From the NCBI GenBank assembly GCA_023663945.1, contig JAMPGL010000015.1:214-64213 (forward strand): a DNA stretch of 64,000 nucleotides, given 5' to 3'. This DNA comes from Lachnospiraceae bacterium. Its GTDB lineage: Bacteria > Bacillota > Clostridia > Lachnospirales > Lachnospiraceae. This document shows positions 11,581 through 48,922 of this stretch, piece after piece. The notes beneath the pieces were generated by a model. It did not search any database and was not told the origin of the DNA. It saw only the letters and a program-made list of their open reading frames with translations. Position 1 is the stretch's first letter; each line of letters begins with the position of its first letter. The translations under genes were made by a program, and so were the position numbers.

Positions 11581-12487
11581 GATGTTTGAAATCCTCCAAC
11601 GGGAATTTGTTTATGTCAGTTATTACTTTATGGTTCAGCTCCGGCAGATTGCCGGATACTGGATTCTTGGCATGGTCATCGGCTCTCTGGTTTCGGTGTT
11701 CGCCAAGGACGCCATTCACGGAGCCTTCGACCGTATCCGGGATAAAAAGTGGGGAATCTGGGGCGTGATTCCTGCAAGCCTGCTGGGGGTTGCATCGCCC
11801 CTTTGCATGTACGGCACAATCCCTATTGCGGCGTCCTTTTCCCGGCATGGAATGCGGGATGACTGGCTGGCGGCGTTTATGATGTCCAGCGTACTCTTAA
11901 ATCCCCAGCTTATCATGTATTCAACGACGCTTGGAGCTGCAGCGCTGGCAATCCGCATCATTTCCTGCACAGTCTGTGGGATTGTGGCAGGGGTTGCAGT
12001 GCATATTTTTTATAAAAAGGAGTCCTTTTTCAATTTTGAAGGATTTGAGCCCCGGGCAAGCCATGATACCCATCCGAACCTGCTTTTGCGGTTTCTGTTT
12101 AATTTGGGCAGGAATGTTAAGGCGACGGCACTCTGGTTTCTTGTTGGAGTGCTGCTTTCCGCACTTTTTCAACGGTATGTTCCGGCGGAAGGGTTTGCAG
12201 AGCTGTTCGGAAAATCCAATGAAGGTTTTGGGGTTTTGATGGCGGCGACCATCGGCGTGCCTCTCTATGCCTGCGGCGGAGGCACGATTCCGCTGATTCG
12301 GGAATGGCTGGCGATGGGTATGAGCATGGGCAGTGCATCGGCATTTATGATTACCGGTCCGGCGACAAAGATTACGAACCTTGGCGCATTGAAGATTGTG
12401 CTTGGTCTTAAGCGGTTTATCCTTTATATCGCTTTTGTGATGGCATTTTCCCTTGTGACAGGGCTGATTGTGAATCTGATATTGTAA
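11573..12487 (+). CDS. Permease (DUF318/ArsP-like)
   Basis: Twin motifs SPLCMYGTIP and GVPLYACGGGTIP; multi-TM; ATG 11573 overlaps the upstream stop. Confidence 0.85.
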   Translation: MNEMFEILQREFVYVSYYFMVQLRQIAGYWILGMVIGSLVSVFAKDAIHGAFDRIRDKKWGIWGVIPASLLGVASPLCMYGTIPIAASFSRHGMRDDWLAAFMMSSVLLNPQLIMYSTTLGAAALAIRIISCTVCGIVAGVAVHIFYKKESFFNFEGFEPRASHDTHPNLLLRFLFNLGRNVKATALWFLVGVLLSALFQRYVPAEGFAELFGKSNEGFGVLMAATIGVPLYACGGGTIPLIREWLAMGMSMGSASAFMITGPATKITNLGALKIVLGLKRFILYIAFVMAFSLVTGLIVNLIL

Positions 12488-13508: not shown

Positions 13509-14363
13509 ATGAGTAATCAAGCATGCGTAACACTTAATAACGGCGTACAGATGCCGCTGGTGGGCATTGGAACCTTTCTGCTTTCCCCGGATGAGGCGGA
13601 AAACTCCTGCGTCAGCGCCCTGAAGGACGGCTATCGTCTGATTGATACTGCAAACGCCTATATGAACGAAAAAGCAGTAGGGCGTGCCATGAAAAAGTCA
13701 GGCGTGCCCAGAGAGGAGATTTTCCTTGAAACAAAGCTGTGGCCGTCCTTCTATGAACAGGAGGATGCTGTGGAAAAGACGTTAGAGCGCCTTGACACTG
13801 ACTATATCGATCTGCTTCTGATTCATCAGCCTGCCGGAAATTATATTGCAGGGTACAGGCTGATGGAAAAAGCATACAGGGCAGGAAAGGTGAAAGCTAT
13901 CGGTCTTTCCAACTTTACAGCAGAGCAGGTTCAGGAGATACTTGACGTTTGTGAAGTAAAACCCGCGGTTTTACAGACAGAAGTACATCCTTATTCTCAG
14001 GAAAAAGAGCTGAAAGAGTTTCTTGACAGGGAAGGAATTATCATTCAGGCATGGTATCCGCTGGGACACGGCGACAAGGCGCTCCAGCAGGAAAACGTGT
14101 TTACTGACCTTGCTGCGAAGTATGGCAAATCCAATGCCCAGATTATTCTGCGCTGGCATACTCAGGCGGGCAACATTGTTATTCCCGGCTCCAAGAATCC
14201 TGACCATATCCGCGCAAACTTTGACATTTTTGATTTCGCCCTGACAGATGAGGAAATGGCTAAAATCGCTGGATTAAATAAAGATGTGCGGTATTATCAC
14301 AGCACGCCCGAAATACTGGAAGGTTATGTGAAGATGGTTCCTCCGGTAGACGAGCAGAAGTAA
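13509..14363 (+). CDS. Aldo/keto reductase (2,5-DKG reductase-like)
   Basis: MPLVGIGTF, LIDTANAYMNE, YIDLLLIHQP, IPGSKNPDHI. Confidence 0.95.
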   Translation: MSNQACVTLNNGVQMPLVGIGTFLLSPDEAENSCVSALKDGYRLIDTANAYMNEKAVGRAMKKSGVPREEIFLETKLWPSFYEQEDAVEKTLERLDTDYIDLLLIHQPAGNYIAGYRLMEKAYRAGKVKAIGLSNFTAEQVQEILDVCEVKPAVLQTEVHPYSQEKELKEFLDREGIIIQAWYPLGHGDKALQQENVFTDLAAKYGKSNAQIILRWHTQAGNIVIPGSKNPDHIRANFDIFDFALTDEEMAKIAGLNKDVRYYHSTPEILEGYVKMVPPVDEQK

Positions 14364-15366: not shown

Positions 15367-16368
15367 ATGGCGAAATGTAAATCAGGAAAATGTGGATGCA
15401 AGGCAAGGATTGTCAGCAATGTGGTTCAGAATATGCAGGGTGATAACTGTATAGACGTATGTGTTAATCCAATCTGTGAGACTCCTAAGGTACTGAGCCT
15501 TATGGCGCCATTGATTTATGACGAAATCGGAATTAATCTCTGTGCGTCTTTTGCGCTGGGGACGGATATTTCAACAACTTATCCAACCGCGGTGTCGGCA
15601 ACGGCGCATGTGCTGAATATCGATTATACCTATGGGGATGGAGATGTTGTGATTGAGGCGATTACAGGCAGGCCGAACTGCTATGTTGTTACCTTGTCGA
15701 ATCTTTCAATCGAATTTGCAGTCAATCTTTATGATGAGAACTGCCGGCTGCTTGATACGCTTTATCCTACGGCTGTTTATCTGCCGCCGGAAACGACAGC
15801 GGCGACCTATGATGAAGACACAAATCCGACCTCTGTGGAACTGGAGATTTTTGCTCCGTACGGAATCAGTTATGATGCAGGAGCAACCGCTGATGCGGAT
15901 CCGACTCCGAATATCAATTATGTTGGTTTTTTGGGAAGCAATAATTATATCAGACAAGGTCTGAATCTCTATGCGATGGCGAAGGTTCTGGGATTTGATG
16001 CGGATGATGACACGGTTACTGTGGGTCTGACGCTTGTTCTACAGAGTCTGTATTTTGCAGGATACCGTGTGGAGAGTGCAGGCAGAATCAACACACCGAA
16101 GGGAAGCCTGATTACGCCGGATAACAGCAGCTGTCTGCAATTTGTTGCAGGCGATCTGCTGGATTTGGCAATCAAGCCCTTGGAGCTTGGTCCTCCGCTT
16201 TGTGAGGAGCGGTATAAAGAAAGCTGTAATACTACGTGCACCTCACGGTGCGGTGCGGGATCCGGCGCAGGCGATGATACGACCGTTCTCCCCGGCATTG
16301 GAGGCGGAACCGCGGCTGCTGGTGGAAATACCGGTGATACGGGAAATACTGGAAATACAGGAAGCTGA
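15367..16368 (+). CDS. Hypothetical Cys-rich-terminus protein, probable spore coat/exosporium component
   Basis: N-term MAKCKSGKCGC, C-term CNTTCTSRC then G/N/T triplets (GNTGDTGNTGNTGS); sigmaK-like promoter. Confidence 0.6.
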   Translation: MAKCKSGKCGCKARIVSNVVQNMQGDNCIDVCVNPICETPKVLSLMAPLIYDEIGINLCASFALGTDISTTYPTAVSATAHVLNIDYTYGDGDVVIEAITGRPNCYVVTLSNLSIEFAVNLYDENCRLLDTLYPTAVYLPPETTAATYDEDTNPTSVELEIFAPYGISYDAGATADADPTPNINYVGFLGSNNYIRQGLNLYAMAKVLGFDADDDTVTVGLTLVLQSLYFAGYRVESAGRINTPKGSLITPDNSSCLQFVAGDLLDLAIKPLELGPPLCEERYKESCNTTCTSRCGAGSGAGDDTTVLPGIGGGTAAAGGNTGDTGNTGNTGS

Positions 16369-16406
16369 TTCCCGTATGCCTGCATCGGGACTGCCGGCTG
16401 GCTGAA

Positions 16407-16504
16407 GGGAAGTAAAAGTATGGAGCTGTTGCAAAGTGGCTTAAAAAGCTGCCGGAGCGACAGCTCCTTTTTGTGCCTGAAACAAAAAGACTTTCTGCTT
16501 TTTT
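16407..16504 (+). repeat. 98-bp direct repeat, copy 1 (contains terminator-like hairpin)
   Basis: Identical to 18606-18703 except 2 nt; GGAGCTGTTGC...GCGACAGCTCC + TTTTT. Confidence 0.95.
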
Positions 16505-16692
16505 AAGTTCCCCATTTTTAAAATACGAATGCTCCGGAATCCTCTATTTTTATTATCACAGAGGAAAAATGGGGAACTCAAAGAAATTATAAGAGGAGGA
16601 TGCCATGTATATTTTTAGAGTATGGATTACTGGAAAAAACGGTGAAGGAATATATGCCAGTTAATGTAACTGCCTGCATATTTGATATGGAT

Positions 16693-16724
16693 ATAAAAGC
16701 TCTGGAATAATCCAGAGCTTTTAT
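16693..16724. terminator. Perfect 14-bp hairpin, probable bidirectional terminator
   Basis: ATAAAAGCTCTGGA-ATAA-TCCAGAGCTTTTAT downstream of hicB (-). Confidence 0.75.
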
Positions 16725-16787
16725 GATAACTACAACATTTTTTAATGCCCTATAGGCACAGTTTTAAGCAATTGAAAACCTCTTCCA

Positions 16788-17165
16788 TCAGGTCTGTATT
16801 TTGGAGAGAAGCGCTTCCTGCAAAATTTGGGAAAAGTTCAGTCCCATAGATACGGCGCGGTCATTTAACCATGAAGGAATAGTCAAAGTTTTCTTGACTG
16901 CCTTTGTATTTTTATATTGGTTAATATCGCATGATACGAGTGTTGAAAAACCATCTTCCGGATGATAGGCGGAAATGTCGGACGGAGTGGCAATGTCTTT
17001 TTCCTGCTCCAATACTGTCATGAGATAACCGGCAAGAGCTTCCTGCGCCATTTCCATAGTTTCCGGGACGGTAGAACCGTAACTGTAGCAACCTTTCAGA
17101 TCAGGAAATTCTACCCAATAGGATTCATTTTCCTTGTGAAAGATAGTGGGATACACAAAAATCAT
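16788..17165 (-). CDS. hicB: HicB family antitoxin (no adjacent hicA)
   Basis: FVYPTIFHKE..YWVEFPDLKGCYSYG.TVPETMEMAQEAL; C-term RHH-like KKTLTIPSWLN..A..LNFSQILQEAL; RBS GGAGG. Confidence 0.9.
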   Translation of the reverse strand: MIFVYPTIFHKENESYWVEFPDLKGCYSYGSTVPETMEMAQEALAGYLMTVLEQEKDIATPSDISAYHPEDGFSTLVSCDINQYKNTKAVKKTLTIPSWLNDRAVSMGLNFSQILQEALLSKIQT

Positions 17166-17268
17166 AGTGAAACCTCCTTGCATCAATAACTATAACACGC
17201 ATTACACGTATTGCCAACGACAAAATACGTGCTATACATATTTTGCTCTATATTACTTTATTTATACG

Positions 17269-17434
17269 CTAGTGTACTGACACGTTCATCTTTGAACTAA
17301 CAGTACGACCTATATCGCCATCTGTTGCGTTGTCATCGGTCAACGATGCCACCGCATCGCCTCCCTCTTCCGCCTTGCAGAGTGACGATATATCCCGCAC
17401 TGTTAGTTCAAAGATGAACGTGTCAGTACACTAG
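17269..17434. mobile_element. 166-bp MITE-like element with perfect 36-bp terminal inverted repeats ending in CTAG
   Basis: CTAGTGTACTGACACGTTCATCTTTGAACTAACAGT (17269-17304) and its exact reverse complement (17399-17434); no ORF. Confidence 0.8.
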
Positions 17435-17500
17435 AAGCAGAAAAGGATATTGCAGAAAATGAAACCGTTTTGCATAATGCTATAAATTGGGAATAAGGAG
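17433..17500 (+). pseudogene. 3' remnant of the 70-aa antitoxin-like gene
   Basis: 68 bp identical to 24500-24567 (EAEKDIAENETVLHNAINWE*). Confidence 0.85.
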
Positions 17501-17721
17501 CTGATTAAAATTTCAAGCTGGCATCAAGGGTATTTTTATGTGACAGATGTATGCAGTGCAATTGGTGTTATTCTATTTTGGGATTGAAAAAATCTAACTC
17601 ATCACTTGACAATGTTGTATGGATTTGATAAGTTTCGACAAATTATGACATCATAATATAGAAACATCTTGTTTCAGATGCTTTTAGGTCATAGTAGATC
17701 GTGTCTTGGAATGAGAGACAT

Positions 17722-17904
17722 TCATAATGATTTTTGCAATTTATGCTCCTGTATTTTTTTGTGTACTTCCAATCCGCGGCTGTTGTAATAGTCAATCCGC
17801 TCTTGCAGAGTCATATCTTTTGTTTGGTAATAATTATATTCCCTTAATTTATGGATGTCTTCAATGGTAAAATTGGGACTTAAAATCGGTTTATTCATAA
17901 TCAT
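17722..17904 (-). CDS. Small protein coupled to PIN gene (putative antitoxin)
   Basis: 60 aa; ATGA overlap with PIN stop; charged helical sequence. Confidence 0.6.
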   Translation of the reverse strand: MIMNKPILSPNFTIEDIHKLREYNYYQTKDMTLQERIDYYNSRGLEVHKKIQEHKLQKSL

Positions 17905-18377
17905 TCCTCACTGTCCAATAATACAGATGGGTTTAAAATTTCAATTGGCTTATGACCTTTTAAATTGGTTATAGCCCGTATGCCTCTGATTGTTTTTATA
18001 TTTACAATATGTTTAAAATTCCATGATATGATACAATCACATTCACTGATGATTGCTGCTCCGATATGTTGGCAGTCGTCATAGCTTTTCTTTGTAAGTA
18101 TGCCCATTTTAATGATCTGTTCAGCTATTTCTGCAACATTGTTGTTAATCTGGACTAATGTGTAATTAATTTCTTCCAGACAGTTTAAAAGGTGACTTCG
18201 CTTTGGCTCAGGGCAGTCTTCAATTTCTTCAAGAGTTACTGTGGACAGATATACATCATATTTTTCTTTGCGGAACATTTCCCATAGTTGTCTGGTATCG
18301 GCCATTTTTTCTGGTGCATCTTCTTGAGATAGATGGCTAATAACTGATGTATCCAGATAAACTTTTAATTTATTCAA
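17901..18377 (-). CDS. PIN domain protein (VapC-like)
   Basis: KVYLDTSVIS, STVTLEEI, DDCQHIGAA, IISWNFKHIVN; RBS GAGGTG before TTG. Confidence 0.9.
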   Translation of the reverse strand: MNKLKVYLDTSVISHLSQEDAPEKMADTRQLWEMFRKEKYDVYLSTVTLEEIEDCPEPKRSHLLNCLEEINYTLVQINNNVAEIAEQIIKMGILTKKSYDDCQHIGAAIISECDCIISWNFKHIVNIKTIRGIRAITNLKGHKPIEILNPSVLLDSEE

Positions 18378-18605
18378 AATTATCACCTCGCAATGTTTTT
18401 CGTGATTAAAGTATACAAAAGATTTCTAATAAAAACAATGGAAACTGAAAATTTTTGAATTTGGCTTTTTCAATTTATGCAGATACATACGGCGCATCTG
18501 TTATTGTATATAAAGCTATACATAAAACACAAAATGTTGACAAAAAATTTTCAGCGTCTACAAGGGGTTGCTGGATTATTCTGTAAATTCTGCTTCTAAA
18601 CTTAG

Positions 18606-18703
18606 GGGAAGTAAAAGTATGGAGCTGCTGCAAAGTGGCTTAAAAAGCTGCCGGAACGACAGCTCCTTTTTGTGCCTGAAACAAAAAGACTTTCTGCTTT
18701 TTT
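18606..18703 (+). repeat. 98-bp direct repeat, copy 2
   Basis: Matches 16407-16504 with 2 substitutions, both weakening the hairpin stem. Confidence 0.95.
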
Positions 18704-18746
18704 GCATGGTACAATGGCAGTGTTGATGCTATAATAAAGCCTATAA

Positions 18747-19157
18747 GGTGAATGCGGAAAAACTGAAGAGGAAATTAAAGCGGCAGAACAAATGCTTAAT
18801 GTGAACTTTTCAAATCAGTGCAGAGAGTTTTATGAAAAGTATGGTTACTTATCGTTCTTTGGCACTGAAATATATGGAATTGAGCCATATAGTAATTCCG
18901 GGGTATTGGAAGGAAATTCTGTTGCCTGCGCATTACATGACAGGGAAAAATATAATTTGTCAAGTGAGTGGATACCTATATATAATTTTGAAGATGGAAA
19001 TATGGCATATTTAGATTATTCTACTTTAAATTCAGAAAAAGAACCTAGAATTATAATGGCATTTTATAATGGGGCAGAATATGAAGTCGTTGAGGAATTG
19101 GCGGAAGATTTGGGGGATTTTATTTTGGAGCTGGTACAGGAGGAATTGGAGGAATGA
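18747..19157 (+). CDS. SMI1/KNR4 family immunity protein (probably 5'-truncated)
   Basis: In-frame GECGKTEEEIKAAEQMLNVNFSNQCREFYEKYG.. begins after TAA at 18744; first ATG 18792 lies inside the domain; C-term ELAEDLGDFILE. Confidence 0.8.
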   Translation, partial: GECGKTEEEIKAAEQMLNVNFSNQCREFYEKYGYLSFFGTEIYGIEPYSNSGVLEGNSVACALHDREKYNLSSEWIPIYNFEDGNMAYLDYSTLNSEKEPRIIMAFYNGAEYEVVEELAEDLGDFILELVQEELEE

Positions 19158-19294
19158 AATGAAGGCTCATCAGGGAACGGGCGGATTAATAGGGAAACAT
19201 CGGCAGCTGCAATGGGAAAAATGCATAAAGAAAGATGCTGTAGCAGAGTCTTACTCGGCGTTGATGTTTAGGTGAACTTAGAGAGGAGGAAAGG

Positions 19295-20113
19295 ATGAAA
19301 TATTGGGTAGTAGATGAAAATAATGTGTATATAGAAATAGACGACAGCGCTATTGAGGAGTACATTAATAATGGAGGTGAGATAAAACGAGAAATTGTAG
19401 GGGCAATGGGACAATCACATAGAGAAGAATATTTAAAATATTTGTATCCTGTTTTAAATCATCCACAGTATGATATGCGTTCTGATGCTGCTCTAGGAAT
19501 CTTCAATTTAAATGGGAAGCAGGGGCTGCAGAAACTAATAGAGAGAGAAACCATGATAGATGAATCAGAATTTATGGATATACCAAGTGAAAAAGGTGTA
19601 TTAAGAGCAATGATACTGAGGATTGAGGAAGGAATAGATGGAGTAAAAAAATATTTCTTGTCAGATGATGGGTATGAAATCGTTAAGTATGACATTCCTT
19701 TTTGCTATCGATCAGGATATAATTTTAAAGAAGAAGATGTTGAATTATTATGTTTTATTCTGGAAAACGCAGCTAAAAAGTCTGTTAAATGGATAAAAGA
19801 TTTAGAGAAAGAGGATTATAATGAGCTGATTTATTTTACACTGGAAAGTGTTTGGATGGCTGGCGAAGAAACAGGCATATTGAAAGGATTAAGCGATGAC
19901 TTGTCTGAAAGAATCCTTATAATATTTAAAACGCTTATTGACAAAAGGGTAAATAACGATACTAAGGAGATTATTGCTGAAACAGCAAAATATATGAAAA
20001 GAGATTATGCAATTAGTATTTTACAACTGTTAAAGAATAAAGTTAGCGGGGATGCCAAAAGAGAATACAAAAAAGCCTTAAAATACTGGGGAATTAAGGA
20101 GGAGGAATTGTAG
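19295..20113 (+). CDS. Hypothetical helical protein, putative immunity protein
   Basis: 272 aa, strong RBS GGAGGAAAGG, AT-rich, HEAT-like RSDAALGIF; context-based. Confidence 0.6.
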   Translation: MKYWVVDENNVYIEIDDSAIEEYINNGGEIKREIVGAMGQSHREEYLKYLYPVLNHPQYDMRSDAALGIFNLNGKQGLQKLIERETMIDESEFMDIPSEKGVLRAMILRIEEGIDGVKKYFLSDDGYEIVKYDIPFCYRSGYNFKEEDVELLCFILENAAKKSVKWIKDLEKEDYNELIYFTLESVWMAGEETGILKGLSDDLSERILIIFKTLIDKRVNNDTKEIIAETAKYMKRDYAISILQLLKNKVSGDAKREYKKALKYWGIKEEEL

Positions 20114-20704
20114 ATGAGCATGGAACATAAAGCATATTTGTTTGATTCAATAAGATACCATTCAGACATAGAAAAAATATTAGATAAGTGCTGCAAAGAG
20201 AAAAGCACTATAGAAGCAGAAATGTACATTGACAAGCATTGGAAAGAATTGTATTCGCCCTATACAGGTGAACCCTTGGATGAAGAATGGAAAAAGGAAT
20301 TAACAAGCGGAAACCTACAGGAGTATTTTGATATTCTGCTTACGGCGTGTTATGAATGGGAGAACGATATTGGTCTTGGCTATGCGTGGGATGGAGTTAA
20401 TGAAACTTTAAAACAGATAAACTTCATAAATAATATTGAAAAATGTGTGTTGGGTGAAACACTTGTTTTCCACGGCATAACGATTGATCCGGGGGCAATG
20501 GGATTGGGAATCATAGACGAAAAAGAAGTCAAGTTTATAAAAGAAAAATTAATACAGAATAAGGAAAAAATTGAAAGTGCAGATTTGCCTGAAGATCTTT
20601 TATACGAAATGGAAAAGGAAGAAATAGATGACGCATATGATGATCTGTGTGGAATATACACTCAGGCAGATAAGGAGAAGAAAGGCATTATGTTTACCTT
20701 TTAA
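20114..20704 (+). CDS. Hypothetical acidic protein, putative immunity protein
   Basis: 196 aa directly abutting the upstream stop; RBS GGAGGAGG; context-based. Confidence 0.6.
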   Translation: MSMEHKAYLFDSIRYHSDIEKILDKCCKEKSTIEAEMYIDKHWKELYSPYTGEPLDEEWKKELTSGNLQEYFDILLTACYEWENDIGLGYAWDGVNETLKQINFINNIEKCVLGETLVFHGITIDPGAMGLGIIDEKEVKFIKEKLIQNKEKIESADLPEDLLYEMEKEEIDDAYDDLCGIYTQADKEKKGIMFTF

Positions 20705-20890
20705 AATATGTGGAGAAAGAAGCCCGTTCCTTATAAGGAATGGAAAGTCCATAGGGAAAACAGATGCTTATCAAAGAGCCTTGGACGAACAGAAACAAGA
20801 AATTTTAATACAGACTTTAATATTAAAGGTGGTTATTGATTAGGCCGGGAATGTAATTACAGTATTTCCTAAAAAGCAGGAGTTTTTATC

Positions 20891-21223
20891 ATGAATTTCT
20901 ATATAGGCAATTCAATAAATGAGATTGATGAACAGGATGTTAATGTAGAATTTAGTGATGAGTTACTTGATTTTGTTTACAAGTTAAGCAAATGCGGTTC
21001 ATTCGATATGAGTAAGCTGTATGAGGTTAATCCATATGCTGATATTGAAATTTCTAAAAGTGATTTATCTCAAATAATTGAGGTATGCAATTATATCTTA
21101 GATGCATCGTTACTTCAGAATTATGAAGAACCAGACAAAGGTAATCAAATGTTGAAGGATTTAGTGGAGATTGCTCAAAAAGCACAGTCAAGAGATTTAG
21201 GATTGGTTTCCATAGGAGATTAA
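20891..21223 (+). CDS. Hypothetical acidic protein, putative immunity protein
   Basis: 110 aa, RBS CAGGAG, ends ...LVSIGD; context-based. Confidence 0.6.
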   Translation: MNFYIGNSINEIDEQDVNVEFSDELLDFVYKLSKCGSFDMSKLYEVNPYADIEISKSDLSQIIEVCNYILDASLLQNYEEPDKGNQMLKDLVEIAQKAQSRDLGLVSIGD

Positions 21224-21339
21224 TGCTTTACACAATATAGACAAAGAGTTTCTTGCTTCAGCAGAAAATTTTAAATGAACATACTGTGGTAATAGGACAT
21301 AAAGAATTAATGAATTTATTTGATGATATCAGATTGATA

Positions 21340-21515
21340 ATGCGAGTGCTGGTGGTAGTAGTCCTATTTCGGAAAAGTTAGTTGACGGTTCATCTATGAA
21401 GACAAGTGATGCATTAGATTTGGCAAGTGACTTTTTCAGAGAAGGATATACAGAACCAAAACCAGATAAAATGCAAGTAATTAAAGATACACGCATATAT
21501 TTTGGGGGATTGATC
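21340..21515 (+). pseudogene. Toxin C-terminal remnant fused in frame to the following immunity gene
   Basis: ...SSMKTSDALDLASDFFREGYTEPKP resembles polymorphic toxin C-termini; no own RBS/start context. Confidence 0.4.
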
Positions 21516-21776
21516 ATGAAAATAGAAATAGAAATTGAAGATTATAGTAAGGAAGAAGGAATAAAATTAAAGTGGGAAAGGGGATTTAGCATTAAAGTAG
21601 AGAAAGAAGGTGATAAAGTTTTAATTTTAGCAAATAAAGCAGGGTTAATTTCTTTGGCTAATCATTTACTTACTTTATCACAGGATGAAATATTAGAGGG
21701 AGCGCATATTCATCTTGATGAATATAATTCGTTGGAAGAAAATTCGTTAGATATAATAATTGAAAAAGCAAATTAA
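21516..21776 (+). CDS. Imm32-like immunity protein
   Basis: GIKLKWERGFSIKV, ANKAGLISLANHLLTLSQ, HIHLDEYNSLEE; RBS GGGGG before ATG 21516. Confidence 0.7.
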   Translation: MKIEIEIEDYSKEEGIKLKWERGFSIKVEKEGDKVLILANKAGLISLANHLLTLSQDEILEGAHIHLDEYNSLEENSLDIIIEKAN

Positions 21777-21980
21777 ATGAGTGAGGGATTCGGAGTCAGC
21801 CGAGTTCACAGTCATTGATTGCCTGCATGGCAACATCGAGGGAGCAGGAAAGTACTATGACTGAACCACTGGGAGGTGTTGCTGATGATATGACTGAGGA
21901 TTTAATAGCAAAGCTATTAGAGAATTTATCAAGTGCAACCAACAAGAAAGACCATTGCATACAAAATTAGGAGGCAAGAA

Positions 21981-22334
21981 ATGAGTAACAATTTAGATGA
22001 TTTCGGTGAGATATTTATTAGTGAGGTAAGAGATAATACACTTGAAATGTTTGAAAAAATGTTTGATGGTAGAATGAAAGGACTGACAGCACAAAGCGTT
22101 AGGGATAAAATATCAATATTTGATGAACAAGAGAAAAGTGTTTTATTGTGGCTTCTTTCAAAAACAGTAGATTATTGTATGCATAATATGTTGTTTATGC
22201 TGGAAGAACACGAAGAAGTTGAAATGCTATATGCAGGGGAAAACGTTGTTGAAGAAAGTGATGGATTATCAGGAGAATTATATACAGAAGATGGATGGAT
22301 AGAGAAATACAGTAAGAAAGTGTATGAAGAATAA
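21981..22334 (+). CDS. Putative polymorphic-toxin immunity protein
   Basis: RBS AGGAGG; FGEIFISEVRD...HNMLFMLEE...SDGLSGELYTEDGWIEKYSK, a pattern seen downstream of toxin CTs; family not named. Confidence 0.65.
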   Translation: MSNNLDDFGEIFISEVRDNTLEMFEKMFDGRMKGLTAQSVRDKISIFDEQEKSVLLWLLSKTVDYCMHNMLFMLEEHEEVEMLYAGENVVEESDGLSGELYTEDGWIEKYSKKVYEE

Positions 22335-22463
22335 AGTATTGCAGAGGGTATTTTAGAGTGTTGCTGTCCATAATTTAATATGAACCAAAGAAGATGATAG
22401 TTTAGATAATGTGAAGTGACCTTATATTTGTAGCAATGTGGTCTTGCGTCAAGATTTAGTTCA

Positions 22464-23010
22464 AAATATAATCCAGTAATTGGGAGATTCACACAGGAAG
22501 ATACCTACAGGGGAGACGGGCTGAACCCGTATGCGTACTGTAGGAATAACCCGGTGGTGTATTATGATCCTGACGGACATGCAGGGGCTGGAATCTGCCA
22601 CCACCTGATCAGGCAGAGTATGGTGGAAAGGTAAGTGGTGGTAAAGATAATGTATATACATATGAAAATGGAATTTATGAGAAAACAGATTATCACTCAG
22701 GGCAAACAACAGGAGTAAAAAGTAAAGCTCCAGCGGATGGACAATTTGCTCTTGATAATTCAGTTCCCATTGGAGACAATACAAATCGTAGAGTAGGATT
22801 GGATCGTAATAGTGATTTTATCGTTTTTGATGAAACAACTGTCGGAATATATCATGGACATGTAAGAACTTGGAAAAAAATGATAATGGTTTGAAGGGAT
22901 TGTCACAAGAGATGAAAAATGCGTTGCATAAAGCAGGATATGTTAAAAGTGTCAAGGGAACTAAAGCTAAATTTACAAAGTTCGCTAAGGCATCATTTGG
23001 AGGTAGCTGA
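22464..23010 (+). pseudogene. Orphan Rhs C-terminal cassette 1 (frameshifted twice)
   Basis: Rhs core end YNPVIGRFTQEDTYRGDGLNPYAYCRNNPVVYYDPDGH; -1 shifts near 22598 and in A7 at 22874-22880; toxin part KSKAPADGQFALDNSV..RRVG..YHGHVRTW..QEMKNAL. Confidence 0.85.
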
Positions 23011-23537
23011 TGCAAATTAATTTAAATATTAATGCTGATACAAGTTTACGATTGATAATTTTAAGTGAGAAAGTTGAGAGATTTTCTCCGTGCAGATTAG
23101 AATTAATTAATATTTATTTCAGGGTTAGCTTATGTGAAGAAGATTATCTGTATGTATTTGTTGAAAATATATATAAGAGACTGCAAAATTTACACAGTAT
23201 AGATGAAATACCTGATTTGCAGGGAGTGATTGGAAAATGGCAGGAATATTATTATTATGATAAACAGTTTGTATGTAATCATCAAAAGCAGATATCTTAT
23301 ATGGAGAAAACAACGCTTCTTAGCACAGAACTATATGGATTATTTCTTTATAAATATAAAGGAAAGGTATGGATAGAAATAGATAAAGGATATGAGGAAA
23401 GCGAAATATTTATTACACCAAAGGAGTATTATGATTCATTTAAAAACTACCGTGTAGTGCTGGAATCAGTTTCCGATGATAGAATTTCTGAATGGATGAC
23501 TAAAATAGGCGATATAGTATCATCAGTTGTTTTATAA
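23010..23537 (+). CDS. Putative cognate immunity protein of Rhs cassette 1
   Basis: ATG overlaps the toxin stop (TGATG at 23008-23012); intact 175 aa. Confidence 0.7.
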   Translation: MQINLNINADTSLRLIILSEKVERFSPCRLELINIYFRVSLCEEDYLYVFVENIYKRLQNLHSIDEIPDLQGVIGKWQEYYYYDKQFVCNHQKQISYMEKTTLLSTELYGLFLYKYKGKVWIEIDKGYEESEIFITPKEYYDSFKNYRVVLESVSDDRISEWMTKIGDIVSSVVL

Positions 23538-23542
23538 CAAGC

Positions 23543-24190
23543 ATCACGGGAAGAGATGGAACGGCGGAGAACTGTTATGTTTATGATGCTTTTGGAAATG
23601 CGCTGGAAAAGAAAGAAGATGTCCAGAACCGCATCCTGCATACGGGTCAGCAGTATGATCAGGAGACAGGGCAGTATTACTTGAGGGCAAGATACTATAA
23701 TCCAACGGTTGGGAGATTCATACAGGAAGATACCTACAGGGGAGACGGGCTGAATCTGTATGCGTACTGTGGGAATAACCCGGTGGCATATTATGACCCT
23801 GACGGACATGCCGGGGCTGGAATCTGCCCACCACCTAATCAGGCAGAGCAGGAAAATCAGGTAAGTGCTGGTGAGGGTGGCGGAGCAACAATTAAAAGTT
23901 CTGATTTAGTATTTGGAAGTAGTTCCAAATCGACATAAAAATTAATGAATCAAATGAATAGTAGAGGATGGGCAGAAGATTTAATACGAAACATAGTTGA
24001 TAATCCATATACTACTCGTATTAGTATAAATAAGGCAACAGGAAACTTTGTAACAGTGTTTTATACTCAGCAAGGTTCATATGTTATTGTTGATGATGAT
24101 ATAAAAGCGATAGTGCAAATTAGTGATAATATTAATCCATCGACATGGGCACCAGATTTAAGTATAGTTGACCCATACATACCAGATTGA
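23543..24190 (+). pseudogene. Orphan Rhs C-terminal cassette 2 with colicin E5-like tRNase domain (in-frame stop)
   Basis: YDAFGN..YDQETGQYYLRARYYNPTVGRFIQEDTYRGDGLNLYAYCGNNPVAYYDPDGH; TAA at 23936-23938; then QMNSRGW..SYVIVDD..IVQISD..W. Confidence 0.85.
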
Positions 24191-24200
24191 GGTGAATAAA

Positions 24201-24302
24201 ATGAGAATTACAGAAATAAGTACAGTTATCAAATCTGTTGAATATGCAGGAGAATATATAATTATGGTAAAAACGGAGAAATTACAGTATTATATATTAT
24301 GA
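24201..24302 (+). pseudogene. Truncated putative cognate immunity gene of cassette 2
   Basis: RBS GAGGTG, ATG 24201, only 33 codons (MRITEISTVIKSVEY...). Confidence 0.4.
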
Positions 24303-24350
24303 ATGTTGACACAAGGGGGCGATATTTATAAATAGAAAGGAAGTGTTTGT

Positions 24351-24563
24351 ATGAGCGCAGCAACAAAGGAAGCTATAAATCTTATGGAAATCTTACCAGA
24401 GAGTGATCAAAATTTTGCTCTTGAATTTATTAAAAAACTTGTTCTTGCGTGGGATCCGGATTATACAAAAGTTACACCCGCAGAAAGAAAAGCATTAGAA
24501 GAAGCAGAAAAGGATATTGCAGAAAATGAAACCGTTTTGCATAATGCTATAAATTGGGAATAA
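24351..24563 (+). CDS. Small antitoxin-like protein (no adjacent toxin)
   Basis: 70 aa MSAATKEAINLMEILPESDQNFALEFIKKLVLAWDPDYTKVTPAERKALEEAE; RBS GAAAGG; pattern typical of partners of RelE-type toxins. Confidence 0.6.
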   Translation: MSAATKEAINLMEILPESDQNFALEFIKKLVLAWDPDYTKVTPAERKALEEAEKDIAENETVLHNAINWE

Positions 24564-24626
24564 GGAGACGGCAACTTACACGCGCTAATTCGTACGACGG
24601 AAACAGATACACTAGAAAGGAAAACA

Positions 24627-25579
24627 ATGGTAAAAAAATTGGATATGATAATAAAAGTTGGAACACGTTAGAAAAAGAAAAAGTAATTGATTTAATAGAA
24701 AAATTCAGAGTTACTCCTGTTGTGGAGTCTGATGTTTTTGAAGAATTGGCTGATTATGTTTGGGATTCTGGAACATGTAAGCCACTTTTTTTTGTAGCTA
24801 TACCATATATTATTGAAATTGCGTCAGCAAATATTTTTGAAGTCACTAAGGATTTATGGTGCTATTTAGGAAGCTGGATAGCAACACACGAAAAGTACCG
24901 CGAAGGAATATCAGATGAAGCTTTAGAATGTTTTGATTTAGCATTGGTACATGCTGAAGAAAGATGTATAAATCAAATAGTTTTGGCTGACCGGGTAAGC
25001 GATATAGATGCACAGTATTTATATGCATGTTTATTTGCATTTGCAAAACATAGATTAGGTTATATGACAATGAGTAGTTATAAGGATGATATTGCAGGAA
25101 CATCTATAGCAGTATGTCAAAACGGTCATTTGAATGATGTAACTATATATAATTCTGGAATTGTACCCTATGAGATGGCGGAATGTCCATGCAATGTGCG
25201 GGAAGTCTATATAAAAGATATCACAATAGAAGACAGGAAAGATAATCCTTGGATTTTATTTGAAAAAAGAATTCAACAGGGATTAGCAATTCAAGGCACC
25301 AGTAAAGAGATAGTATCACATTTAAAACTTGCACAAGAAATTATTAGACACGGTGTTACTCCCAAACTTCCAATGGAATATGCTTTTTCACTATATGGCA
25401 GTTTACTGTATTGCAATGGATCGTTTAATGAAGGCATACGTATTTTGCATGGATGGGATGAATTTACATGTTTGGAATGTGGTGAAAAATTTATTTTTGC
25501 TAGTGGCTGGTGTGAGGATATGTACTCTCTGAGTATGGTAATACCTCTGCCTGTATTATACAGGGAGAGTAGATTTTAA
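24627..25579 (+). pseudogene. Hypothetical (putative immunity) protein with probable 5' frameshift
   Basis: RBS GAAAGG + ATG 24627 is out of frame with the long ORF (24554 frame) and stops after 14 codons; long ORF has CQNGH and CLECG motifs. Confidence 0.5.
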
Positions 25580-25597
25580 AAAAGTTGGAGGTTTATA

Positions 25598-25795
25598 ATG
25601 GCATACTTTAATACTGAAAATATTAAAGAACTTATGTTAAGGCATATATCCAAAGACGAATTTTTGGCTATGGAAAATTTAAGCGAAAATGATATGAAAG
25701 AATGCGTATACAAGGAACTGCTTATTATAGTTATGACACGCGGGAAGGTGGATTATGCAGAATGGAGAAATTCGTGCTGTCTATACACAGGATAG
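25598..25795 (+). pseudogene. Gene fragment (putative immunity N-terminus)
   Basis: RBS GGAGG, 65 aa, runs into the DUF4291 fragment. Confidence 0.35.
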
Positions 25796-26030
25796 TATAA
25801 GAGTATATCAGGCGTATTCAGATTTTATTGCAGATGATGCTGTTAAGAATGGCAGATTTGGCACGGGATTTAAAATGGAAAGGATGACATGGATTAAACC
25901 TTCGTTCTTATGGATGATATATCGGTGCGGATGGGCTGAGAAAAAGGCAGAAATAAAGAAAAATATTTCAATCAAAAACGGCAAGGCTGTTGCAAATATT
26001 ATTGGAAAGGATGAAGTAATATGGCTGTAG
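25755..26030 (+). pseudogene. Truncated DUF4291 protein fused to an unrelated tail
   Basis: EIRAVYTQDSIRVYQAYS..IA..A..RMTWIKPSFLWMIYRCGWAEK is the DUF4291 N-terminus; rest absent. Confidence 0.75.
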
Positions 26031-26173
26031 CATTGAAAGAAGATTACCAAAGAGCTTTGGACGAACAGAAACAAGAAGTCCGAGAGCTTGTTATGGCTGG
26101 CTTGGAACAAATAAAAGAGGGGAAGACGAAAGACTTTAATACTGTATGTAACAGATTGGATGCCAAATGGTGA
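26021..26173 (+). CDS. 50-aa antitoxin-like peptide (not in ORF track)
   Basis: MAVALKEDYQRALDEQKQEVRELVMAGLEQIKEGKTKDFNTVCNRLDAKW; RBS GAAAGG; 30-bp near-copy of part of it at 20772-20801. Confidence 0.45.
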   Translation: MAVALKEDYQRALDEQKQEVRELVMAGLEQIKEGKTKDFNTVCNRLDAKW

Positions 26174-26210
26174 CCTTGTAACAAAATTGAGGGTGGCTCA
26201 GGAAGCAAAT

Positions 26211-26532
26211 CAGGGCAGTATTATTTAAGGGCAAGATACTATAATCTAACGGTTGGGCGATTCACACAGGAAGATACCTACAGGGGGACGGGCTGAACCT
26301 GTATACGCACTGTGAGAATAACACGGTGGCGTATTATGATCCTAGTGGATATAATGGGATTGGAACTTGTCCCCCGCCTAATTAAGTGGGCTATGAAAGT
26401 GATAAGGAAATCAGTGTACCTAAAGAATATGTCAGAGCAAATGTTCGACGCGGCTGAAGTCTTCAGAATATGCGAAATGATTACTATGTCGAGCTGACAA
26501 GTTATCTTTACAAATTATTAGATAAGGGGTAA
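26211..26532 (+). pseudogene. Orphan Rhs C-terminal cassette 3 (degenerate, internally deleted)
   Basis: GQYYLRARYYNLTVGRFTQEDTYR, frameshift, LNLYTHCENNTVAYYDPSG..CPPPN*; short tail ..DYYVELTSYLYKLLDKG*. Confidence 0.8.
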
Positions 26533-26535
26533 ATT

Positions 26536-27048
26536 ATGATAAAAAAAATAATAGAAGAAATAAAAAATAAATCAAATTGCAGGGTTTTGCCAAGTACAAC
26601 AGTACCTGCTGATATATTTGACATATTACCTAGCGACATAAAAGAATTTTATACTTTATGTGGTGGAGTTATTTTATTTGAAGATATGCCATATTCAGTA
26701 AGAATAGTACCTCCGGAAGAGTTTGTATTGGCAAATCCAGTCATATTAGGAGAAGAAATTATCAATTCTGAAATCGCAAAAGGAAATTATGAAAATGAAA
26801 TTTCTAGAGAGTGGTATATCATTGCCGATTTGTATAATTCAGACTATATAGTAATTGATATGAATGAGAAAAGAAAAGGAAAATGCTATAAGGCATTTTG
26901 GGATAGCTATCCAGACGAAGGGGATACTTCAACTATTTCATTATCATTTACTGAACTGTTAGAAAAATTATCACAAAATGATGGTGAGCATTGGTTTTTT
27001 CTGAAAAAGGATTTTAAGTCTTATGGTGATGCTTACGATGAAACATAG
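26536..27048 (+). CDS. SMI1/KNR4 family immunity protein
   Basis: LPSDIKEFYTLCGG..LF, WYIIAD..SDYIVID, SFTELLEKL. Confidence 0.85.
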   Translation: MIKKIIEEIKNKSNCRVLPSTTVPADIFDILPSDIKEFYTLCGGVILFEDMPYSVRIVPPEEFVLANPVILGEEIINSEIAKGNYENEISREWYIIADLYNSDYIVIDMNEKRKGKCYKAFWDSYPDEGDTSTISLSFTELLEKLSQNDGEHWFFLKKDFKSYGDAYDET

Positions 27049-27273
27049 GCATATACAGTATCAAATGTCATAGTTTCTCTAATTTTCTAACCAATCTAAA
27101 AGTTACTTCATGGGCTGAACTGTTACTGAATTTTTGATTTTTTTGCAAGAACCACTTGCATTTTCATCTCATTAGTGTTAGACTAAACTTAACTATCAGG
27201 AAATTTGCAGTGATATGTTGTATATCAGGCGTTAGAACACGGATGTTCAAATTTATTCAAAGGAGTGATGACA

Positions 27274-28491
27274 ATGGGTATCGGTATTAATGTAGGTACA
27301 AATCGGGATTGTTCTTATTTATTTCAAGGGCTTTCATCCAGCGGTGGCGGAATGGGGAATCTGAATTTCCTTTCAGACTATGCCAGCATTAAGAACGGCA
27401 GCTACGGGAAGCTTATGAAGTCCTATTACGGCACAACGCAGAGCGCGAGTGCATCGAGCTCAAGCAAGAAGAGCGGCTCACGTGATGTTCTTGAGGAGAT
27501 TTTAGAGGCGAAGAAGAATCCGAAGGTTTCTAAAGAGGCACAGAAGGCAAATTCAGATTTGACAACGGGGCTTTCCAGTCTGAATAACTCCATTTCTGCA
27601 TTGCAGGGCGAGAAGATTTACTCAGACACGGAGAACGGCAGCAGTGCAGAGAGCAAGGTTGTTTCTGCAATGAAGGATTATGTGTCAAATTACAATAATG
27701 TTGTGAACGCGGCAAAGGGCTCCACGTTAACGGGCAAGACGGCATATGTGGCGAATATGATGAGCAGTACGGCGGCAAGTGCTGATAAGCTTGCGGAGAT
27801 TGGCGTTACGATCAATACAGACGGCACGCTTGAACTGAATGAAAGCAAGCTGAAAGCGGCAGGCGTTTCTAAGGTTCAGGAGTTATTCTCCTCCGATGAT
27901 CTTATGAGCTATGGCTCTAGAGTTGCATCTCGCGTTAAATTTGCAGGCGGTGCGTCCAGCACAAATGCTGCAACGGCGGACAGCACAGAGACGGGCAGCA
28001 CCACAGGCATCGGAGCGGCTTATCTCAAAGCGGACGCTAAGGCTCTTGCATCCGACAAGTTATACGAAATGATGAAGGATAAAGACGGCAACGAAACCAA
28101 TAAATACGATGTTGACAAGATTTTTGCTACAGCTAAGAGCTTTGTGAATAATTATAACAGTACGTTCAAGGCGGCTGAATCAAGTACTAATTCCGGCGTA
28201 TTAGCAAACTTATCTTACATCAGAGAGAAGACGGCATATAGTGAGAACACTTTAAAGCAGTTTGGCATCAGCTTAGATACGAAGGGCAGAATGCAGATTA
28301 ATGAGGACACATTCAAAAATTCAGATATGTCTCAGGTACAGGCATTTTTCAAGGATTATGGTTCTTCTATTGCAACCAATGCGTCACTGGTAGATTACTA
28401 TATGACCACGCAGGCAAGCGCTGCTGACGGTTATACATCTGACGGATCGTACAATGTACAGGGTAGTGTCCGTTATGCCGATACAATATAG
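27274..28491 (+). CDS. Protein with two tandem FliD C-terminal-like domains
   Basis: Twice: K.(F/Y)V.NYN ... L..(I/F)G(V/I)..(N/D)..G.(L/M).(L/I)NE..(L/F)K; RBS AAGGAG. Confidence 0.55.
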   Translation: MGIGINVGTNRDCSYLFQGLSSSGGGMGNLNFLSDYASIKNGSYGKLMKSYYGTTQSASASSSSKKSGSRDVLEEILEAKKNPKVSKEAQKANSDLTTGLSSLNNSISALQGEKIYSDTENGSSAESKVVSAMKDYVSNYNNVVNAAKGSTLTGKTAYVANMMSSTAASADKLAEIGVTINTDGTLELNESKLKAAGVSKVQELFSSDDLMSYGSRVASRVKFAGGASSTNAATADSTETGSTTGIGAAYLKADAKALASDKLYEMMKDKDGNETNKYDVDKIFATAKSFVNNYNSTFKAAESSTNSGVLANLSYIREKTAYSENTLKQFGISLDTKGRMQINEDTFKNSDMSQVQAFFKDYGSSIATNASLVDYYMTTQASAADGYTSDGSYNVQGSVRYADTI

Positions 28492-46898: not shown

Positions 46899-46970
46899 TG
46901 GGCTATCGCCAAACGGTAAGGCAACGGACTCTGACTCCGTCATTTCAAGGTTCGAATCCTTGTAGCCCAG
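46899..46970 (+). tRNA. tRNA-Gln (anticodon CTG)
   Basis: Acceptor TGGGCTA/TAGCCCA, anticodon arm ACGGA-CTCTGAC-TCCGT, T-loop GGTTCGAATCC; CCA not encoded. Confidence 0.97.
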
Positions 46971-46978
46971 CGAAATTG

Positions 46979-47008
46979 ACCCGGTGAACATGGTTCATCG
47001 GGTTTTGT
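46979..47008 (+). terminator. Terminator after tRNA-Gln
   Basis: ACCCGGTGAAC-ATG-GTTCATCGGGT + TTT. Confidence 0.7.
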
Positions 47009-47116
47009 GCTGTGAAATATTAAAAGAGAGCCGAGCTTTCTGCTTTATTGTAATTGGAAGGAAAGATGTGTATAATACTTAGAGAAAAGAAATAAAGCCG
47101 GCTTCGGAGGTGGCAG

Positions 47117-48610: not shown

Positions 48611-48621
48611 ATATAAGAAGA

Positions 48622-48792
48622 ATGGAGGTATATGCAGAATATGATGAAGCAACAAAGTCTGATATACTTATTCCGGATGAGAAGGACAGAATGTTTTATG
48701 ATATTGCAAAATGCTGTCATGCCAGATTGATAACAGGTAATAATAAGTATTATCCAATAGATGAACTCGTAACTTCATTATGGGAGATGTAA
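48622..48792 (+). pseudogene. C-terminal remnant of a PIN domain toxin
   Basis: PDEKDRMFYDIAK..ARLITGN.KYYP; N-terminal half missing. Confidence 0.65.
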
Positions 48793-48922
48793 AATAATTT
48801 ATGTAAACTTTTTATTTCCAAAATACGGAATTAGTATTGATTTTCTGCGACGAATGCAGTATGATGAGTTTACATAATCTTATTATTATGGTAATCCAAT
48901 ATGAATGTTACGGAGGATACAT

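Follow-up and report, generated by a model that had tools for sequence, protein, structure and literature searches.

A probable heterogeneous polyimmunity locus with decayed Rhs toxin cassettes in the chromosome of a gut Lachnospiraceae bacterium

Orphan immunity genes are thought to shape the compatibility of neighbors in dense communities such as the gut, and experimental work on them has mostly concerned Bacteroidales and proteobacteria. The closest described systems include (i) polyimmunity loci, homogeneous or heterogeneous, which were described in 2011–2012 (firmicutes included) as co-directional, closely spaced, and strain-variable and were proposed to provide pre-emptive defense against non-kin toxins (PMC3482391); (ii) the acquired interbacterial defense (AID) and recombinase-associated rAID-1 arrays of orphan immunity genes, which protect in vivo in Bacteroidales (Ross et al. 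2019, 10.1101/471110); and (iii) orphan tdi genes, which outnumber tde/tdi pairs 10:1 in metagenome-assembled genomes from the gut, Lachnospiraceae included (PMC13556189). A locus to be compared with these was found in a 64,000-nucleotide stretch of DNA from a Lachnospiraceae bacterium (hereafter the window; assembly GCA_023663945.1, contig JAMPGL010000015.1, positions 214 to 64,213), in which an AT-rich island of about 10.6 kb, spanning about 16505–27130 of the window, carried immunity-type genes together with the remnants of Rhs toxins.

This island is probably a chromosomal heterogeneous polyimmunity (orphan-immunity) locus of a gut Lachnospiraceae bacterium, built from cassettes of Rhs C-terminal (CT) toxin domains and their immunity genes. 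Its GC content was 0.33–0.37 in all 1-kb bins from 17001 to 27000 versus 0.44–0.50 in both flanks, in agreement with the AT-richer stretch of about 10.6 kb noticed in the initial annotation of this DNA. From about 18.7 kb onward all genes lay on the plus strand, with gaps of 0–204 nt in the left half, and the families present were two SUKH, one Imm32, and six unnamed ones: six immunity genes stood in a row at 18792–22334 (SUKH, p272, p196, p110, Imm32, and p133, in that order), while p175, a gene of a family of about 300 aa, and the second SUKH gene were located further to the right. The initial annotation had counted about ten mostly intact immunity-type open reading frames (ORFs); seven of them (the 272-, 196-, 110-, 117-, and 175-aa genes, Imm32, and the SUKH gene at 26536) were full length relative to their homologues and had Shine–Dalgarno (SD) sites, while the SUKH gene at 18792 and the 300-aa-family gene had 5′ lesions and a DUF4291 ORF was a fragment.

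The origin of the island from Rhs CT/immunity cassettes, proposed at the outset, was upheld by Rhs core-end fragments within it and by the order of cognate genes in relatives. Fragments of the core end (…YYNPxxGRFxQEDTYRGDGLN…YYDPxG) were found at about 22438, 23540, and 26205; these three copies were 78–93% identical to one another in DNA and displayed 74–81% protein identity to Rhs core ends of Lachnospiraceae. Relatives were represented by 68 loci from other Lachnospiraceae/Clostridia carrying the same Rhs core end (here and below, loci outside the window are designated with L numbers), and the close relatives of the core fragment all belonged to Lachnospiraceae or Clostridia, consistent with the Lachnospiraceae host assigned initially. 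The core-end motif occurred 132 times in the 68 loci: 27 times at the end of a full-length Rhs (about 2,300–2,500 aa), 83 times in orphan cassettes, and 22 times in copies cut by contig ends. Two full-length Rhs proteins of about 2,500 aa, encoded at 3206–10714 of L019 and 2892–10466 of L002, were composed of a VgrG-like Phage_GPD domain (a weak match of 26.6 bits, under the Pfam cut-off), DUF6531, and 12 RHS repeats. No LXG domain was detected in the full-length Rhs proteins of the relatives, which begin with the Phage_GPD-like domain plus DUF6531; a link to type VII secretion (T7SS) and LXG toxins was thus rejected, and T7SS effectors, named in the initial annotation among the targets of the island, were dropped.

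Five toxin remnants, all of them dead, were recognized in the island: the three Rhs core/CT cassettes and two short tails. It had been stated initially that all recognizable toxin cassettes were disabled, which was true of all three cassettes, but the remnants were five rather than three and a PIN_3-domain gene in the left part of the island (see below) was apparently intact. An open CT frame continuous with the core fragment was present in none of the three cassettes, and the toxin ORFs lacked starts and SD sites. The remnants were as follows: (i) cassette 1 (22438–23010, plus strand), an Rhs core end plus a CdiA-CT-like toxin with two −1 frameshifts, of which the first (one C lost at about 22597) was common to the sister strain X4 (see below) and severed the toxin from the core, and the second (A7 rather than A8 at 22866–22872) was found in the window lineage only; (ii) cassette 2 (23540–24190, plus strand), an Rhs core end of about 88 codons and a linker, followed by an in-frame TAA (23939–23941) and a colicin-E5-type tRNase domain (23945–24190; Colicin_E5, E = 1.5e-18), with no recognizable immunity gene after the ColE5 domain; (iii) cassette 3 (26205–26535, plus strand), an Rhs core end plus the remains of an L002-type Tox-SHH (HNH/EndoVII) nuclease, with a −1 frameshift at 26283, CAA>TAA at 26383, loss of the catalytic core in a 422-nt deletion (joint on L002, 9939->10362), and a further −1 frameshift; (iv) remnant 4 (21815–21980, plus strand), the last about 50 codons of an L019/L039-type Rhs-CT (…EDLIAKLLENLS…), deleted at its 5′ side and frameshifted near its end; and (v) remnant 5 (20795–20870, plus strand), the last about 22 codons of an L031-type toxin with an in-frame stop, which read …TLILKVVID*AGNVITVFPKK versus …NTLKVVIDKTGNVITAFPKK* in L031 and was fused upstream to a repeated junction (20762–20801). 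The toxin family of cassette 1 had the invariant motif DYH…DGQ.ALDNS…RRVG.D.N…D.T…HGH.R.W, with a pre-toxin HINT domain in some members; its profile matched the Cupriavidus taiwanensis CdiA toxin (PDB 5T87) with E = 1e-23, and its model superposed on 5T87 at 1.0 Å. Programmed read-through at the stop of cassette 2 was also considered and rejected, the stop being TAA and the ATG three bases past it having no SD site.

Three sequencing runs, X1–X3, yielded unitigs with 0 differences from the window across all three cassettes; the lesions are therefore not single-run assembly errors, and assembly error as the source of the frameshifts was rejected. At least 11 disabling lesions were counted in about 1.9 kb of toxin-derived DNA versus 3–4 in about 5 kb of immunity genes, a density about 8-fold higher. 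Among the orphan cassettes of the relatives, 22 of 81 (27%) were broken, compared with three of three in the window (p about 0.02), and the loss of all three was thus only mildly unusual.

The immunity-type genes could in large part be paired with toxins through the relatives. Three genes (SUKH at 18792–19157, SUKH at 26536–27048, and Imm32 at 21396–21776) passed the Pfam cut-offs, which settled favorably the profile search suggested initially as a check, and the unnamed ORFs (272, 196, 110, 133, 175, and about 300 aa) had homologues directly after intact toxins or in toxin-free immunity arrays. The SUKH gene at 26536–27048 (plus strand, 170 aa, intact) shared 88% identity across its whole length with the gene located directly after the full-length Rhs of L002, whose CT is a Tox-SHH (E = 8e-18), and is its presumable cognate; the immunity partners listed for Tox-SHH include SUKH (PMC3482391). 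The 117-aa gene (21981–22334, plus strand, intact) was 42–45% identical to genes that directly follow the L019 full-length Rhs and the L039 orphan CT; its ORF, p133, was listed from GTG 21933, the real start being Met17 with an AGGAGG SD site, which gives 117 aa. The 110-aa gene (20891–21223, plus strand, intact) matched, across its whole length and at 59% identity, the L031 gene at 13782–14111, which follows a 166-aa toxin-like ORF. The 272-aa gene (19295–20113, plus strand, intact, with a strong SD site) and the 196-aa gene (20114–20704, plus strand, intact), separated by a gap of zero, matched two genes after the orphan Rhs-CT of L009 at 60% and 66% identity over their full lengths, respectively, the latter at 11744–12331; L009 carried a second p272 copy that was broken. 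The Imm32-family gene (21396–21776, plus strand; E = 1.6e-15) has its likely true start at ATG 21516.

The 175-aa gene (p175; 23010–23537, plus strand, intact) belonged to a rare family (five clusters among 5.8 billion proteins). Its homologue in L072 lay directly after a 183-aa homologue of the cassette 1 toxin, by which p175 appears to be the cognate of cassette 1; in L070 and L071, a family member and a SUKH gene formed a toxin-free pair flanked by housekeeping genes. Members of the family of about 300 aa were found after a full-length Rhs in L076 and, in L077 and L078, in a 14-gene co-directional toxin-free array with SUKH-3, Imm19, SMI1_KNR4, Imm1, and DUF1266, which is a textbook heterogeneous polyimmunity locus. 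In the window, the gene of this family (24554–25579, plus strand) had its conserved start (MVKKI…, ATG 24627, SD GAAAGGA) put out of frame by A7 rather than A8 at 24632–24638, which left it with a TTG start without an SD site, and its family stop was mutated, adding 17 aa. The family comprised 31 clusters, all unannotated, with invariant C164, H168, C282, and C285; its AlphaFold (AF2) model, built with database homologues as the first alignment rows, was confident (pLDDT 91.5, pTM 0.91), and a fold search with this model gave no significant match in PDB. The remaining member of the row, the SUKH/SMI1-KNR4 gene at 18747–19157 (plus strand; SUKH_6, E = 2e-12), was 5′-truncated: the profile was entered at position 11–33, the ORF encoded 121 aa from ATG 18792 with no SD site before it, the first helix was still encoded in frame upstream but separated by a stop, and X4 carried 86 extra nt at this 5′ end.

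Both lineage-specific frameshifts that distinguish the window from X4 were A7-versus-A8 changes in poly-A runs, one in the dead toxin (22866–22872) and one in an immunity gene, immediately past its start codon (24632–24638). Slippage in such runs could in principle switch these genes on and off.

The sequence comparison was also applied to strain X4, which was about 97% identical to the window, carried the same locus, and was represented by Logan contigs of one metagenome run; X1–X4 were treated as DNA metagenomes because their depth was flat over genes and spacers, and no RNA run containing the locus turned up. Substitutions were taken from read-laying output and counted after Nei and Gojobori, and the resulting ratios of non-synonymous to synonymous differences (pN/pS) concern one strain pair, with small counts and a few differences unlisted. 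The ratios for immunity genes were 0.12 (SUKH at 18792), 0.24 (272-aa gene), 0 (196-aa gene, with four synonymous and no non-synonymous differences), 0.18 (Imm32), 0.21 (117-aa gene), 0.24 (175-aa gene), and 0.19 (300-aa-family gene), or 0.16 when pooled (30.5 non-synonymous, 43.5 synonymous), while those for toxin remnants were 0.89 (cassette 1 toxin) and 0.64 (toxin tail at 21815, with five non-synonymous and two synonymous among seven differences), or 0.81 when pooled (18 non-synonymous, 6 synonymous). The pooled contrast was significant (Fisher p = 0.0045). On one X4 contig, the dead-toxin stretch was 5.8% diverged, about the synonymous rate, versus 1.5% for the adjoining p175 (p = 1.5e-4), and since the first frameshift of cassette 1 was common to both strains, p175 has been conserved ever since its toxin died. 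That antidotes stay under purifying selection after toxin loss is supported by these comparisons. Decay of the immunity genes at the rate of the toxins, which the initial annotation had named as an observation that would speak against it, was not seen, and its proposal that antidotes are kept and toxins dropped agreed with both the substitution ratios and the lesion counts.

The following course of events would account for the island. The cassettes originally ran from an Rhs core end through a toxin domain to an immunity gene; the toxin parts were destroyed in this lineage by frameshifts, nonsense codons, and deletions, two of them being cut down to tails of 20–50 codons, while most of the downstream immunity genes were kept at full length, with SD sites, under purifying selection. 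The co-directional genes at about 18.7–27.1 kb may be read from one or a few promoters, and their products would be small cytoplasmic proteins, each blocking one family of toxin domains arriving from neighbors; the families countered may include the Tox-SHH nuclease, the 5T87-type CdiA-CT, the L019-type CT, and others. The cell would thereby be protected without making toxins or a delivery machine. Gene content turns over fast between strains, with some immunity genes starting to decay.

This turnover was pronounced. X4 lacked HicB, the greater part of the PIN gene, the 110-aa gene (removed by the joint 20724->21338), the ColE5 CT (depth 0 at 23895–24220), and cassette 3 with the SUKH gene at 26536 (depth 0 at 26364–27130), and array content thus differed strongly between two strains of about 97% identity. 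The comparison across strains that had been suggested initially therefore yielded the expected selection contrast, but also a locus less clean than had been stated.

Several points weigh against a maintained polyimmunity locus: (i) the SUKH gene at 26536, p110, and HicB are dispensable at least in the sister strain, since they are missing there; (ii) the array is not uniformly maintained, because the SUKH gene at 18792, the 300-aa-family gene, and DUF4291 are damaged and ColE5 has no immunity gene; (iii) the evidence for selection comes from the Logan contigs of one run, with small counts and some differences unlisted; (iv) three degenerate cassettes are still present in the right half of the array, against the strict definition of polyimmunity; and (v) X1–X3 contained neither an intact Tox-SHH nor an Rhs body of the L002 type at >=80% DNA identity, a threshold that a diverged gene would escape, so that the intact cognate toxins expected initially in co-resident species did not come to light for this type. 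The locus is best described as an intermediate, an Rhs cassette tail from which the toxins have gone and which is turning into a polyimmunity locus, because it departs in one point from polyimmunity loci and in two from orphan-cassette arrays. A fuller reading is put forward tentatively, with somewhat more doubt than confidence: the island may be a working, expressed, and selection-kept Gram-positive counterpart of AID directed against VgrG-like Rhs toxins, caught in mid-transition by in-situ toxin decay, with a structurally unprecedented Cys/His-rich family of about 300 aa and two previously unpaired couples (5T87-type CdiA-CT/175-aa protein and L019-type CT/117-aa protein).

Some of the same observations would also fit a neutral relic, namely the decaying end of an rhs locus that had lost, or had never received, its main gene; nothing in it would work, and the immunity genes would look intact only because they are short and the decay is recent. 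Lesions are already present in three or four of the immunity-type genes, gene content is very different between the two strains, and in the relatives, too, 27% of the orphan cassettes and certain immunity genes (for instance, L009's second p272 copy) are broken. Neutral decay, however, would not lead one to expect lesions to be about 8-fold denser in toxin-derived DNA, nor a pN/pS of 0.16 in immunity genes beside toxin remnants that diverge at the synonymous rate, nor the constraint on p175 after the ancestral frameshift of its toxin, nor seven genes that are full length against homologues of 42–88% identity with their SD sites kept; this explanation is accordingly considered unlikely, and a polyimmunity locus in transition is preferred.

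Whether the genes are orphans at all depends on the rest of the genome, of which the window shows 64 kb: a full-length rhs or another polymorphic toxin might lie elsewhere, the immunity genes being kept for self-protection or as a toxin-switching reservoir. Orphan cassettes usually lie behind a main rhs, of which 27 full-length examples were present among the relatives, and the 35–90 codons of core homology kept by the cassettes could support recombination. All three cassettes, however, would yield a truncated or frameshifted product if recombined into such a gene, two toxins are reduced to short tails, and no X1–X3 contig matched the L002-type Rhs body at >=80% identity, a divergent rhs being able to escape this search. 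With the L002 Rhs as the query, X1–X3 returned cassette 3 and the SUKH gene of the window itself and nothing more, and no contig with the depth signature of the organism (about 43/12/13) matched the L002-type Rhs body. A resident cognate toxin is thus improbable, and the designation of the island as stand-alone in the initial annotation was retained within the 64-kb window, to which the claim is limited.

The left end of the island differs from the main array: its first 2.1 kb forms an insert of its own, variable between strains and enclosed by a 103-nt direct repeat, with genes of toxin–antitoxin (TA) type, all on the minus strand, between the two repeat copies. Copy 1 of the repeat (16402–16504) forms the left island border, position 16505 being the first base past it, and holds the terminator-like hairpin of the upstream gene (site 16454–16467); copy 2 (18601–18703), directly after which the immunity array starts, is 96% identical to it; in X4, a joint connects 16468 to 18667. 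The insert contained (i) a solo HicB-like antitoxin gene (16788–17186, minus strand; HicB_lk_antitox, E = 4e-16), the probable start of which is an internal ATG after AAGGAGG; (ii) a palindromic element of 166 nt (17269–17434; 52-nt arms 90% complementary, 62-nt loop); (iii) a perfect 68-nt copy (17433–17500, plus strand, 100% identity) of the 3′ end of a 70-aa ORF located 7 kb to the right (24500–24567); and (iv) a PIN_3-domain gene (17901–18386, minus strand; E = 1e-7) overlapping by 4 nt the gene of a 60-aa partner (17722–17904, minus strand). Type II HicAB systems have hicA beside hicB, whereas no HicA-like ORF flanked 16788–17186, upstream of which the palindromic element was found instead. 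HicB was absent from X4 (depth 0.35), and it may be an older neighbor of the FliD-like gene that flanks the island on the right, rather than a member of the immunity array. A HicB-like gene (33% identical) was also observed in the metagenome loci L100, L101, L103, and L104, on the opposite strand, about 1.2 kb upstream of the FliD-like orthologue.

In three metagenome runs, depth over the palindromic element was about 3x that of its surroundings, and the element had no Rfam match; it is therefore multicopy in the community and may be an element resembling a miniature inverted-repeat transposable element (MITE) or a recombination site. The 68-nt copy, which includes the stop and the following AAGGAG and abuts the right arm of the palindrome, points to a very recent rearrangement within the island, of which it would be the scar. 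The PIN_3 gene and its 60-aa partner are apparently an intact TA-like pair, so that not all toxin-like genes of the island are disabled; in X4 a 425-nt deletion takes most of the PIN gene. That the island as a whole is an intracellular TA or phage-defense island, its small genes being antitoxins or abortive-infection parts, is very improbable: HicB, the PIN gene with its small partner, and the ORFs p70 and p50 (antitoxin-like by eye) would fit, and a Salmonella study reports orphan Rhs toxins as TA-like modules (PMC7043789), but the TA-type genes are confined to the separate strain-variable insert, where they are oriented oppositely, the main array is made up of SUKH, Imm32, and families located directly after secreted Rhs toxins, and the toxin ORFs have neither starts nor SD sites.

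Several smaller ORFs, all on the plus strand, were interspersed in the right half of the main array: (i) the 70-aa ORF (24351–24563), which is antitoxin-like by eye only and is duplicated at its 3′ end at 17433–17500; (ii) a 65-aa ORF with an SD site (25598–25795), which showed no homology to the 175-aa gene of L009 (E = 0.7); (iii) the DUF4291 fragment (25755–26030), corresponding to the N-terminal third (profile positions 1–62 of 180); and (iv) a 50-aa ORF (26021–26173) with a C-terminus that is antitoxin-like by eye (…YQRALDEQKQE…GLEQIKEGKTKDF…) and no Pfam match. The 40 nt at 20762–20801, identical to 26038–26077, are a piece of the 50-aa ORF joined to the toxin tail that precedes the 110-aa gene. 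The 50-aa ORF region (26020–26160) was 7–9x over-represented in X4, with several variant contigs, and the 110-aa gene region (20721–21237) had 5–10x excess depth in X2 and X3, arising from copies of about 95% identity; from this several-fold excess, near-identical copies of both regions reside in other, more abundant organisms.

The right border of the island was sharp at 27130/27131, where both L001 (a contig from another sample, 91.6% identical) and X4 resumed matching; the conserved flank starts at 27131, and the border (27131–27160, plus strand) includes a terminator-like hairpin at 27144–27160. The right-flank gene carried a FliD_C domain, in keeping with its FliD-like label, while the gene at 15367–16368 on the left, labeled a spore gene in the initial annotation, had no Pfam or NCBIfam match and this label was not confirmed. 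The long flank ORFs tested (<=10 kb upstream and 37 kb downstream) were housekeeping or uncharacterized genes, among them those for a MacB/FtsX transporter, DUF362, aldo-keto reductases, Fe-ADH, NUDIX, PrmA, ThiI, RNase J, and glutamine synthetase III. As stated initially, no full-length Rhs, secretion, or integrase gene was present among these or the island ORFs; RHS repeats were absent from the tested window ORFs of >450 aa, the island and flank ORFs included neither a recombinase nor an integrase, and no tRNA, integrase, conjugation, or transposase gene lay in or beside the island, the sole tRNA of the window being located at 46.9 kb. Rfam gave no match anywhere in 16000–27500. Promoter-like sites numbered 56 versus 48±7 in shuffled sequence, and no promoter is claimed because this is not above expectation; no credible intrinsic terminator was predicted between the repeat copy (18653) and the hairpin at 27144. 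Exact-protein look-ups with island and flank proteins returned at most one 4.7-kb contig, which ended at the island border. A search of metagenome contigs for the empty site with the FliD-like protein gave 73 orthologous loci (55–75% aa identity) in which synteny was not conserved and no island genes or Rhs cores were found within 10 kb upstream; being too distant and without common synteny, these loci define no empty site.

Two further observations concern the rest of the window. A second low-GC stretch at 46899–49000 (0.36–0.40), adjoining tRNA-Gln, encoded a protein of 497 aa that carries Schlafen AlbA_2 and HATPase_c_4 domains (47117–48610) and could be another small acquired island. The longest ORF of the window (60265–63441, 1058 aa) had no Pfam match.

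Both the phenomenon and its defensive interpretation are already established; the locus adds a case and leaves the current picture unchanged. What appears to be new are some toxin/immunity pairings and one immunity family without a PDB match. The pairs are directly testable, because the antidotes are matched to intact toxins in named relatives. The island furthermore provides sequence evidence from two strains that selection retains an antidote past the death of its toxin, and it illustrates how toxin-free immunity arrays can arise from the tails of Rhs cassettes.

With the orphan rhs-CT/rhsI and cdiA-CT/cdiI modules that follow full-length genes (Poole et al. 2011, PMC3150448; Koskiniemi et al. 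2014, PMC3967940), the island shares the order of a core end to DPxG, a variable toxin, and an immunity gene, but no full-length rhs lies within 16 kb upstream or 37 kb downstream, and its toxin parts cannot serve as a toxin-switching reservoir because all of them are inactivated; the classical orphan-module arrangement is seen in its relatives. Like AID-1 and rAID-1, it groups co-directional orphan immunity genes of low GC content, presumably directed against toxins of other organisms, in the genome of a gut commensal, the proposed function being the same, and the properties used to delimit rAID-1 (at least two co-directional downstream genes, GC <=41%) are present (plus strand, GC 0.33–0.37); it differs in belonging to Bacillota, in having no 5′ XerD-like recombinase and no integron-like intergenic repeats that were noticed, in showing no sign of an integrative and conjugative element (ICE) or other mobile element, the only repeats noted being the 103-nt direct repeat around the TA insert, and in its Rhs-borne cognate toxins, those of AID/rAID-1 being Bacteroidales effectors of type VI secretion (T6SS). 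Membership in AID-1 was rejected for want of a mobile element, and membership in rAID-1, a kind of array that the initial annotation had mentioned, for want of a XerD-like recombinase. The immunity arrays that sequential effector displacement produced in T6SS clusters of Vibrio cholerae (Kirchberger et al. 2017, PMC5361080) resemble the island in that old immunity genes outlast lost or displaced effectors and differ from it in system, phylum, and delivery machine. In the T7SS immunity strings of Staphylococcus and other firmicutes (esaG, tsaI; Garrett et al. 2022, PMC9484751) and in orphan tdi, immunity genes likewise exceed toxins, but these are homogeneous paralogues or single families, whereas the island is heterogeneous and derived from Rhs cassettes. 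Polyimmunity loci (Zhang et al. 2012, Biol Direct 7:18, PMC3482391) are by definition never interrupted by toxin cassettes, whereas the island still contains three degenerate cassettes plus two tails, none of them functional, and no XerC/D recombinase lies beside it; with these loci it shares at least four tandem, co-directional, and closely spaced immunity genes of unrelated families and a content that varies between strains of one species.

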